From NCBI RefSeq assembly GCF_035084215.1, contig NC_090341.1:20708001-20772000 (forward strand): DNA of 64,000 nucleotides, given 5' to 3'. Below the pieces are notes generated by a model. It saw only the letters and a list, made by a program, of their open reading frames with translations. It did no database searches and was not told the origin of the DNA. The translations under genes were made by a program, and so were the position numbers. Shown piece by piece: positions 59,327 through 60,481 of this stretch (positions within the stretch are counted from its first letter, which is position 1; each line of letters begins with the position of its first letter). The DNA is from Heptranchias perlo. Taxonomy: Eukaryota.

Positions 59327-60481
59327 CTCCACCCCAACCACGTCAGGGGGGCCGTCCCCTGTGGACAGGCCCTACGAGTGCACGGGATCTGCTCGGACGG
59401 GGAGGAGAGCGATGGACGCCTGCAGGCGCTGAGGGACGCCCTCGTGGGGGCAGGATATGACGCTCGACTTGTCGATCGACAGTTCTGACGGGCCACAGCG
59501 AAGAATCGCATAGACCTCCTCAGAGGACAGACACGGGACGCAACCAACAGAGTGCCCTTCGTCGTCCAGTACTTCCCCAGAGCGGAGAAGCTGCACCATG
59601 TTCTCCGCAGCCTTCGGCATGTCGTCGATGGCAGCGGGCGCCTCACTGGGGCCGTCCCCGCGCCTCTGCTGCTCACCTTCGGACGGCCACCCAGCCTCAA
59701 ACAGACCATCGTTCGCAGCAAATTACCCAGCTTTCAGGAGAACAGCGTCCACGACACCGCGCAGCCCGGGAGGGCGCCACCCACCGGGTGCATGGTTCAT
59801 GCTCCTGTGACTCAGCCAGCGTTGTCTGCCTCATGCGTTGTGGGGGGGGATGCCCCGGAGCATGGCGCATTGGCGGGGCCGTGCAGGCACTGCGACGGCG
59901 GATGGACGGGCGCCGCGCGGCAGTCGCTGGATGGGGGGGTTCCCTCCCAGTGGGGGAACACTTTAGCAGTCAAGGACATTCAGCCACCGATCTTCGGGTA
60001 AGCGTTCTCCAAGGCGGCCTTCAAGACACACGACAACGCATAATCGTCGAGCAGAAGTTGATAGCCAAGTTCCGCACCCATGAGGATGGCCTCAACCGAG
60101 ATCTTGGGTTCATGTCACGCTACACGTAACCCCACCAGCAAAAGGGAAAAAAAAGTTATCGGTTTTTAATATTCTCTCTCTCTGCCATTTGGGTCTCTTT
60201 CTCTCTGTCTGTGTAATTAACACAATGTATATTCAGTGTACTGGGACGTACTGTTCTCCGTGGCTGGCCTGTTTGAACAACAATGACACCTTTTGATTGG
60301 TGTGATGCTGTCCCAGCCTAATACAAGATATGCGATTTGAGAACCTTCCACTCATTCACCTGACGAAGGGGATAATCTCCGAAAGCTTGTGATTTTAAAA
60401 TAAAATTGTTGGACTATAATCTGGTGTTGTAAGATTCCTTACATTTGTCCACCCCAGTCCATCACCGGCATCTCCACATCA
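59327..60481 (+). mobile_element. 5'-truncated Penelope-like retroelement with A-to-G hypermutation
   Basis: Post-RT and GIY-YIG regions recognisable (VPCGQALRVHGICS, PFVVQYFP, KQTIVRSKL, CDSASVVCLMRC, EQKLIAKFRTHEDGLNRDLG, stop at 60129); 3' terminal region with a hammerhead-like core; candidate TSD TTGATA at 59321-59326 and 60482-60487. Confidence 0.93.
60360..60390 (+). ncRNA. Minimal hammerhead-ribozyme-like core in the Penelope terminal region
   Basis: CTGACGA-a-GGGG-ataat-CTCC-GAAA-GCTT: CUGANGA/GAAA boxes, 4-bp stem II (one G-U pair), palindromic AAGCTT after the core. Confidence 0.6.

Follow-up and report, generated by a model that had tools for sequence, protein, structure and literature searches.

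A Penelope-like retroelement copy in the Heptranchias perlo genome very probably derived from ADAR-edited RNA

Background

How could a single retroelement copy come to have a large part of its adenines replaced by guanine, on one strand and along several hundred bases, and how did the result reach the genome? This question is raised by a locus in a stretch of 64,000 nucleotides of Heptranchias perlo DNA (contig NC_090341.1, positions 20,708,001 to 20,772,000 of the forward strand), hereafter called the window. A preliminary description, made from the sequence alone, had placed a Penelope element at 59340..59945 and had interpreted it as the fossil of a transcript that was hyperedited by ADAR and mobilised in trans. 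Here we compare this copy with its family throughout the genome. For brevity, A>G changes relative to the family are referred to as edits.

Results

The element and its genomic context

Alignment to the family confirmed an edited copy on the plus strand in the span given before, but the preliminary description had missed the start at 59328, a 57-bp deletion near 59767 and a nearly edit-free stretch around 59453-59524. The following features were identified:

59328..60482, plus strand: Penelope-like (probably Poseidon-type) retroelement copy, 5'-truncated, with a single arm and ending in a tail (alignment to the family)
59346..59936, plus strand: tract of A>G hyperediting, with few edits at about 59453-59524 (74 of 177 A)
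59760..59768, plus strand: position at which 57 bp of the family sequence are deleted, a deletion seen in no other arm that was checked (alignment)
59821..59930, plus strand: putative GIY-YIG endonuclease core region, recoded by the edits (motifs by eye in the family majority)
59937..60129, plus strand: end of the reading frame, unedited, with stop codon TAA at 60127-60129 (counts)
60130..60445, plus strand: 3' UTR or pseudo-LTR, essentially without edits (1 A>G among 93 A in 60127-60482)
60360..60384, plus strand: hammerhead-ribozyme-like core motif, CTGACGA ... GAAA (by eye)
60446..60482, plus strand: tail of about 37 nt, the distal one of two recurrent 3' ends (alignment, family arms)
59322..59326, plus strand: candidate 5-bp target-site duplication TGATA, left copy, short and possibly due to chance; an extra C precedes the element
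60483..60487, plus strand: candidate 5-bp target-site duplication, right copy, likewise short and possibly due to chance

The window copy is without an inverted arm. The endonuclease motifs expected in the preliminary description agree with the family majority. From such motifs, we take the C-terminal endonuclease to be putatively of the GIY-YIG type; the motifs are visible by eye only, and searches of Pfam and of PDB sequences with this region gave no match. The label also follows the accessible part of PMC11167929. The hammerhead-like motif at 60360-60384 gave no Rfam match at E<=1. Among the 73 in-frame edits of the window copy, 52 change an amino acid, residues of the endonuclease motifs being among them. 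The earlier claim of a dead endonuclease is moot because the copy is 5'-truncated.

A large exon with an IQ-type motif is located on the minus strand of the window at 1955-3283, and Sec7 exons are found on the same strand just outside the window (G000:C20:20689479-20697425). Judged from these exons, the arrangement fits an IQSEC-type gene on the minus strand, as proposed earlier; IQSEC is the gene name that we presume for the IQ-motif exon. The window also contains, at 5147-6226 on the minus strand, a copy of a second, distinct Penelope-like family, the endonuclease motifs of which look unedited in translation.

The Penelope-like family

One 23-letter motif of the family has 23,410 matches in the 3.25-Gb genome. 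In the full-length member L162, an open frame of 918 residues was found to contain a reverse transcriptase domain (Pfam RVT_1, E 2.5e-10), and the layout of this member (L162 3876-7604; G000:C1:2376875 onward) has a pseudo-LTR upstream as well as an inverted piece, each with a tail. The pseudo-LTR, the inverted 5'-truncated partner and the one-sided tail of 30-40 bp are thus all present in the family (L162 layout; 47 of 49 pairs). At least two subfamilies exist, which are about 96% alike in the reading frame and have 3' UTRs that cannot be aligned before the hammerhead; a third type of UTR seems to be present, and some A/G columns are diagnostic between subfamilies. Near-identical long copies in both orientations are clustered at L163-L164 (G000:C1:3116000-3136000), a possible source of double-stranded family RNA.

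Spectrum of changes in the window copy

Changes in the window copy were scored against the column majority of 29 other loci. In 59328-59945, G has replaced 74 of 177 A (42%), along about 600 bases and on one strand, with the outermost edits at 59346 and 59936. Other changes in this interval comprise 1 T>C among 94 T, 6 G>A among 137 G, 5 C>T among 208 C, and 1 C>A. The comparison of A>G with T>C, set by the preliminary description as a test, thus gives 74:1 and speaks against GC-biased drift. The edited tract has a G+C content of 62-67%. The hand counts of adenines made earlier (12 in 59821-59940, 32 in 60001-60120) are exact, and the 5' neighbours of surviving adenines were reproduced as G13/C5/T2/A0 for 59341-59460 and G6/C6/T0/A0 for 59821-59940.

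The edited share depends on the 5' neighbour (T 12/17, A 23/37, C 23/69, G 14/52; chi-square p 2.8e-4), and the effect of the 3' neighbour is not significant in this copy (p 0.41). Adenines preceded by G are edited least both here and in the pooled loci described below, in agreement with the 5'-G avoidance claimed before. The G-rich state is not a subfamily consensus, since the window copy has at most 22% (Jaccard) of its edits in common with any of 12 edited arms of the same subfamily, and genome searches with its edited parts found no copy with its own edit pattern above 89% identity.

The tract ends about 190 nt before the stop codon; downstream of it, 0 of 47 A are changed in 59946-60126 and 1 of 93 in 60127-60482. 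A similar gradient was found in 13 loci that were identified through the region 190-320 nt before the stop, in which 86 of 371 A are edited in the last 100 nt of the frame and 9 of 906 in the UTR. The sparing is not absolute, as UTR edits exist in a few loci (L144, L175). A motif that forces edits in the hammerhead region has one match, against 38 for its counterpart in the reading frame; the unforced form is present in only 4 against 28 arms of a position-ordered sample, making this comparison a weak argument for sparing of the UTR. The spared 3' end could reflect cover by protein, a need for an unpaired start region, or pairing partners that lack the UTR.

Edited loci elsewhere in the genome

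An edited locus was defined as one having at least 6 A>G in 100 nt, and subfamily-diagnostic columns were excluded from the edit counts. Loci were sampled by searches with edited parts and with forced motifs, so that the sample is enriched by design. Among 150 loci examined, 43 are independently edited, most of them from the targeted search, and 0 of 22 loci taken in chromosome order are edited. A recapture estimate of about 53 edited loci is a biased lower bound.

The genome-wide occurrence of copies with clustered A>G, which had been proposed as a follow-up, was confirmed with a motif forcing two A>G changes, which has 38 matches as against one for the mirror T>C motif. A second motif pair gave 9 matches for the forced A>G form and 0 for the mirror T>C form over the whole genome. 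Of the loci found with the 38-match motif, 32 of 33 passed the cluster rule, and the remaining one had 5 edits in 100 nt. The sole new locus from the second A>G motif, L225, has 6-10 scattered A>G and was not counted as edited.

In the tracts of the 43 loci taken together, A>G accounts for 1168 of 1407 changes and T>C for 16. The pooled edited share by 5' base is 0.38 for T, 0.40 for A, 0.23 for C and 0.14 for G; by 3' base it is 0.32 for G, 0.28 for A, 0.25 for C and 0.17 for T. A preference of ADAR for a downstream G is typical of mammals and reptiles and differs between lineages. Edit patterns are private to each locus (median Jaccard 0.19, maximum 0.56, in 619 cross-locus pairs). There was no sign of re-mobilisation of an edited copy in these comparisons: the high cross-locus overlaps concern spans of 10-18 A and vanish over the whole overlaps.

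Clusters of the APOBEC type, with at least 6 G>A in 100 nt, were found in 0 of 267 arms. T>C clusters occur in 4 of the 267. One of these, in L085, was dropped, as it contains an equal number of transversions and represents a misaligned UTR variant; the remaining three lie in antisense pieces reached by read-through from a sense arm, and on the RNA strand their changes are therefore A>G as well.

Double-stranded substrate

The single match to the mirror T>C motif is an edited antisense piece, the unedited full-length donor of which is present in the genome. The junction motif of L168 occurs at two places in the genome only, namely L168 itself (the daughter) and L162 (the full-length donor). 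Compared with its donor, L168 has 17 A>G among 42 A and 1 A>T in an antisense piece of 156 nt, followed by 195 nt with 0 differences, and it is flanked by an 11-nt target-like repeat. The antisense piece is complementary at 156 of 156 positions to the donor's own downstream sense copy. This pair fixes the direction of change as A to G and implies that the substrate was a perfect RNA duplex.

Confinement of edits to the duplex holds for the sister loci L168 and L144. In the arm overlap of hairpin L144, 23 of 47 sites of the antisense arm and 24 sites of the sense arm are edited, as compared to 2 edits in the loop, which measures about 500 nt; a genome search for the donor of L144 did not find one. 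In L175 the hammerhead region is present as a small hairpin, the arms of which carry 10 and 11 edits.

Mirror-image insertions

Many insertions of the family are head-to-head pairs. Of 49 pairs in which both ends could be resolved, 47 have the tail of about 37 nt on exactly one arm. Junction overlaps between arms are mostly 0-8 nt. Eleven inverted pairs have 5 or more edits in the overlap. The two arms of these pairs carry A>G in element sense; 147 edits are common to the two arms, out of 164 and 173, as compared to 29 shared of 68 and 72 other differences. Pairs with overlapping tracts edited on one arm only were not found (0 of 11). Where each arm has 8 or more edits (8 pairs), the Jaccard index between arms is 0.68-1.0, above all 619 cross-locus pairs (<=0.56). 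These data suggest that a single RNA molecule was the template for both arms of a mirror-image insertion.

Five of the 11 edited pairs have the tail on the shorter arm and a tail-less longer arm. Neither arm then contains the other, and simple fold-back copying fails as an explanation. The sharing is incomplete, some pairs having clustered discordant sites, and conversion between arms soon after insertion is a possible source of shared edits.

Three side observations concern these pairs. In L138 (G000:C18:51604043-51605492) the twin arms have 8 and 16 edits, 8 of them shared, and the 8 additional ones of the second arm are grouped in two patches, which could be due to patch repair or to editing that took place between two passes of reverse transcription. 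The edited locus L187 (G000:C24:45651792-45653254) has an inverted piece that overlaps the main arm by about 57 nt, resembling L1-type twin priming, and both pieces carry A>G in element sense. Finally, 15 of 19 unedited pairs have their tail on the longer arm, as against 6 of 14 edited pairs, which are small numbers.

Presence and age of the changes in genomic DNA

A short-read contig of 568 nt, reaching from unique flank at 58913 to 59480, shows 0 differences in two of two DNA runs of one sample. Of the 74 edited sites, for which the preliminary description had proposed a check on raw DNA reads, 20 are on this contig and carry G there; the other 54 are outside contig coverage in four DNA runs. 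Short-read contigs drop rare variants, and here they miss 59590-59695 and most of 59770-59950. We infer that the rare variant paths of these 54 sites were lost beside the very deep family path. In runs from a second organism the flank was not covered at 95%, and they yielded no empty site by which the insertion could be dated.

A second line of evidence comes from the decay of CpG dinucleotides. Four of the five C>T changes in the window tract directly precede an edited A (59667, 59841, 59928, 59932). In the pooled edited loci, C>T was found at 20 of 358 sites before an edited A, 16 of 3157 before an unedited A and 94 of 1811 native CpG. CpGs made by editing therefore decay at the native rate, which means that these Gs have aged in methylated DNA for about as long as the copies themselves. 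The edited Gs are old genomic DNA.

Contigs of 33-35 nt match edited 59772-59813 and 59892-59925 in two runs guessed to be RNA, for which run type, strand and depth are unreliable. They may stem from family RNA that is still being edited, or from transcription of this locus, and we do not count them as evidence. The near-full-length locus L157 / L165 (G000:C10:64810767-64813337) has 9 A>G in one short tract and 1 other clean-column difference; a copy this young with an A>G tract indicates that editing is recent or ongoing.

Discussion

Proposed mechanism and alternative explanations

We propose, with high confidence, that the window copy is a Penelope-like copy that received a burst of A>G changes by ADAR acting on double-stranded RNA and was then reverse-transcribed into germline DNA. 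As the family inserts as inverted pairs, the duplex would come from read-through transcripts that fold back or pair with antisense copies. ADAR would convert about 20-45% of the paired adenines to inosine, and the reverse transcriptase of the element would begin at the mostly unedited 3' end and copy inosine as G. In a mirror-image insertion a single RNA would be primed by both cut DNA strands, with one reaction beginning at the distal start, which yields the tail, and the other at the proximal start; the resulting cDNA ends would then be joined. The RNA could have been translated before it was edited, in which case the mobilisation in trans that was postulated earlier is not needed.

Other origins of the changes were weighed against this proposal. 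Error-prone reverse transcription, in which skewed nucleotide pools lead to G at template A positions, would require no RNA editing; hypermutation by retroviral reverse transcriptase exists, and such bursts would likewise be strand-specific and limited to a single copy. Separate runs of reverse transcription would differ, yet of the 164 and 173 edits on the twin arms 147 coincide; the changes end exactly at the boundary of the donor duplex, the loop of L144 is spared, and the order of 5' neighbours fits ADAR, all of which makes polymerase error very improbable. It is also hardly credible that the Gs are an artefact of assembly or sequencing, for instance through the use of edited RNA reads in polishing. 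Polishing is difficult in repeats and 54 of the 74 sites are outside short-read contig cover, but 20 sites are on one contig with unique flank and 0 differences in 2 runs, 4 of 5 C>T precede an edited A, and decay of the new CpGs at the native rate needs a long stay in methylated DNA. GC-biased drift, or descent from a G-rich subfamily, would be compatible with the 62-67% G+C of the tract and with the existence of at least two subfamilies with some diagnostic A/G columns. GC bias would lift T>C equally, and this was seen at 1 of 94 T; the patterns are locus-specific (median Jaccard 0.19 in 619 pairs) with subfamily columns left out, and the probability of this explanation is practically negligible.

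Two further alternatives concern the stage at which the changes were made or multiplied. ADARs are able to act on RNA:DNA hybrids in vitro, and a few pairs have extra edits on one arm, as would be expected if the DNA or RNA strand of an RNA:cDNA hybrid had been edited during integration instead of a prior double-stranded RNA. Deamination of cDNA, however, would give T>C in element sense, opposite to what is observed, editing after a first pass of reverse transcription would leave a clean first arm whereas both arms are edited, and the tracts follow the limits of the duplex. Hybrid editing is for these reasons most improbable as the main process, and could be a minor source of arm-private edits only. 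For the twin arms alone, the second arm may have been copied from the first as DNA, either through fold-back synthesis or through gene conversion at an early stage. Palindromes readily undergo conversion and some discordant sites are patchy; on the other side stand the 5 edited pairs with a tailed short arm and a tail-less long arm, in which neither can be a copy of the other, the absence of one-arm editing in the 11 pairs with overlapping tracts, and the mostly arm-private nature of other differences (29 shared of 68 and 72). We regard copying at the DNA level as unlikely, though it deserves more weight than the foregoing alternatives.

Returning to ADAR editing of double-stranded RNA, we are inclined, with moderate confidence, towards a wider interpretation. 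Germline ADAR would be a recurrent heritable mutagen of Penelope-like elements, fed by inverted repeats that these build themselves; the edits would be barcodes for two primings on one RNA, at the two known start sites; and an unedited, probably protein-covered pseudo-LTR would be needed for most mobilisation. Edited survivors amount to a few per thousand arms, which points to a by-product of ADAR activity on double-stranded RNA, provided that the majority of edited RNAs do not disappear without trace. As a counterpoint, L1 RNA is described as not detectably edited by ADAR1 in human cells in the accessible part of PMC5224506.

The numerical effect on genome evolution is small, about 50 or more loci compared to 23,410 motif-bearing arms. 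Nevertheless, RNA editing has been written back into a vertebrate germline dozens of times, and edited copies in germline DNA imply that ADAR meets retrotransposition-competent RNA in cells that pass on their DNA. The edited loci also form a dated record of the neighbour preference of ADAR.

Comparison with known systems

ADAR hypermutation of retroviruses is known. Avian retroviruses with ADAR-type A-to-G hypermutation, a 5' neighbour bias and inverted-repeat substrates were reportedly described by Felder in 1994 and by Hajjar and Linial in 1995. There, too, edited RNA was reverse-transcribed, but the cases are single cultured viral isolates, as opposed to dozens of heritable cellular copies here. 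Twin priming of L1, in which a single RNA serves as template for primers from both target strands and the resulting cDNAs are fused, frequently through short overlaps, is said to go back to Ostertag and Kazazian in 2001. In L1 an internal second primer results in an inversion, whereas here both starts are near the 3' end and the result is an inverted duplication.

The hyper-editing of inverted repeats by ADAR (Porath et al. 2017, PMC5625713) likewise gives dense A>G clusters in repeats with upstream G depleted. In the available text of that study, depletion of upstream G is an ADAR motif shared across metazoans, and its hyper-editing table includes a cartilaginous fish, the elephant shark. The changes reported there are found in RNA only, in contrast to those of the present family, which are in genomic DNA and have aged there.

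Scars of APOBEC in germline retroelements are already known, as far as the accessible part of PMC4866542 describes them. The G-to-A changes in LTR retrotransposons of vertebrates (Knisbacher and Levanon 2016, PMC4866542) are, as presented in the same part, similarly clustered, one-directional, strand-biased and present in single germline copies when compared to the family consensus. They arise, however, by C-to-U editing of the cDNA of LTR elements; here, A>G is on the RNA sense strand of a Penelope-like element and is tied to double-stranded RNA. According to the available text, that screen was filtered for G-to-A and excluded non-LTR elements. The available parts of Zaranek 2010 and of a paper on MMTV contain no clear case of such edited copies, and our literature search found no report of ADAR-edited Penelope copies in genomes or of edits used to count templates.

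With endonuclease-bearing Penelope and Poseidon elements, as described in the accessible sections of PMC8557442 and PMC11167929, the present family shares its anatomy, i.e. a reverse transcriptase, C-terminal endonuclease motifs, a hammerhead-like motif, an inverted partner and a tail at one end. In the available text of PMC8557442 the formation of the inverted structure is called undefined. For a purified relative from a lizard, the accessible part of PMC11167929 describes that both DNA strands are cut and extended, that two adjacent start sites define the tail, and that a dimer is predicted. Going beyond what these parts of PMC8557442 and PMC11167929 contain, the shared edits provide in vivo evidence on how many templates were used. 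Because no two edited RNAs are alike, the pattern reveals the number of templates in an insertion and allows daughters to be traced to their donors. In this way, the question of how the inverted repeats and the one-sided tail of Penelope-like elements arise can be put to the test with genomes alone.
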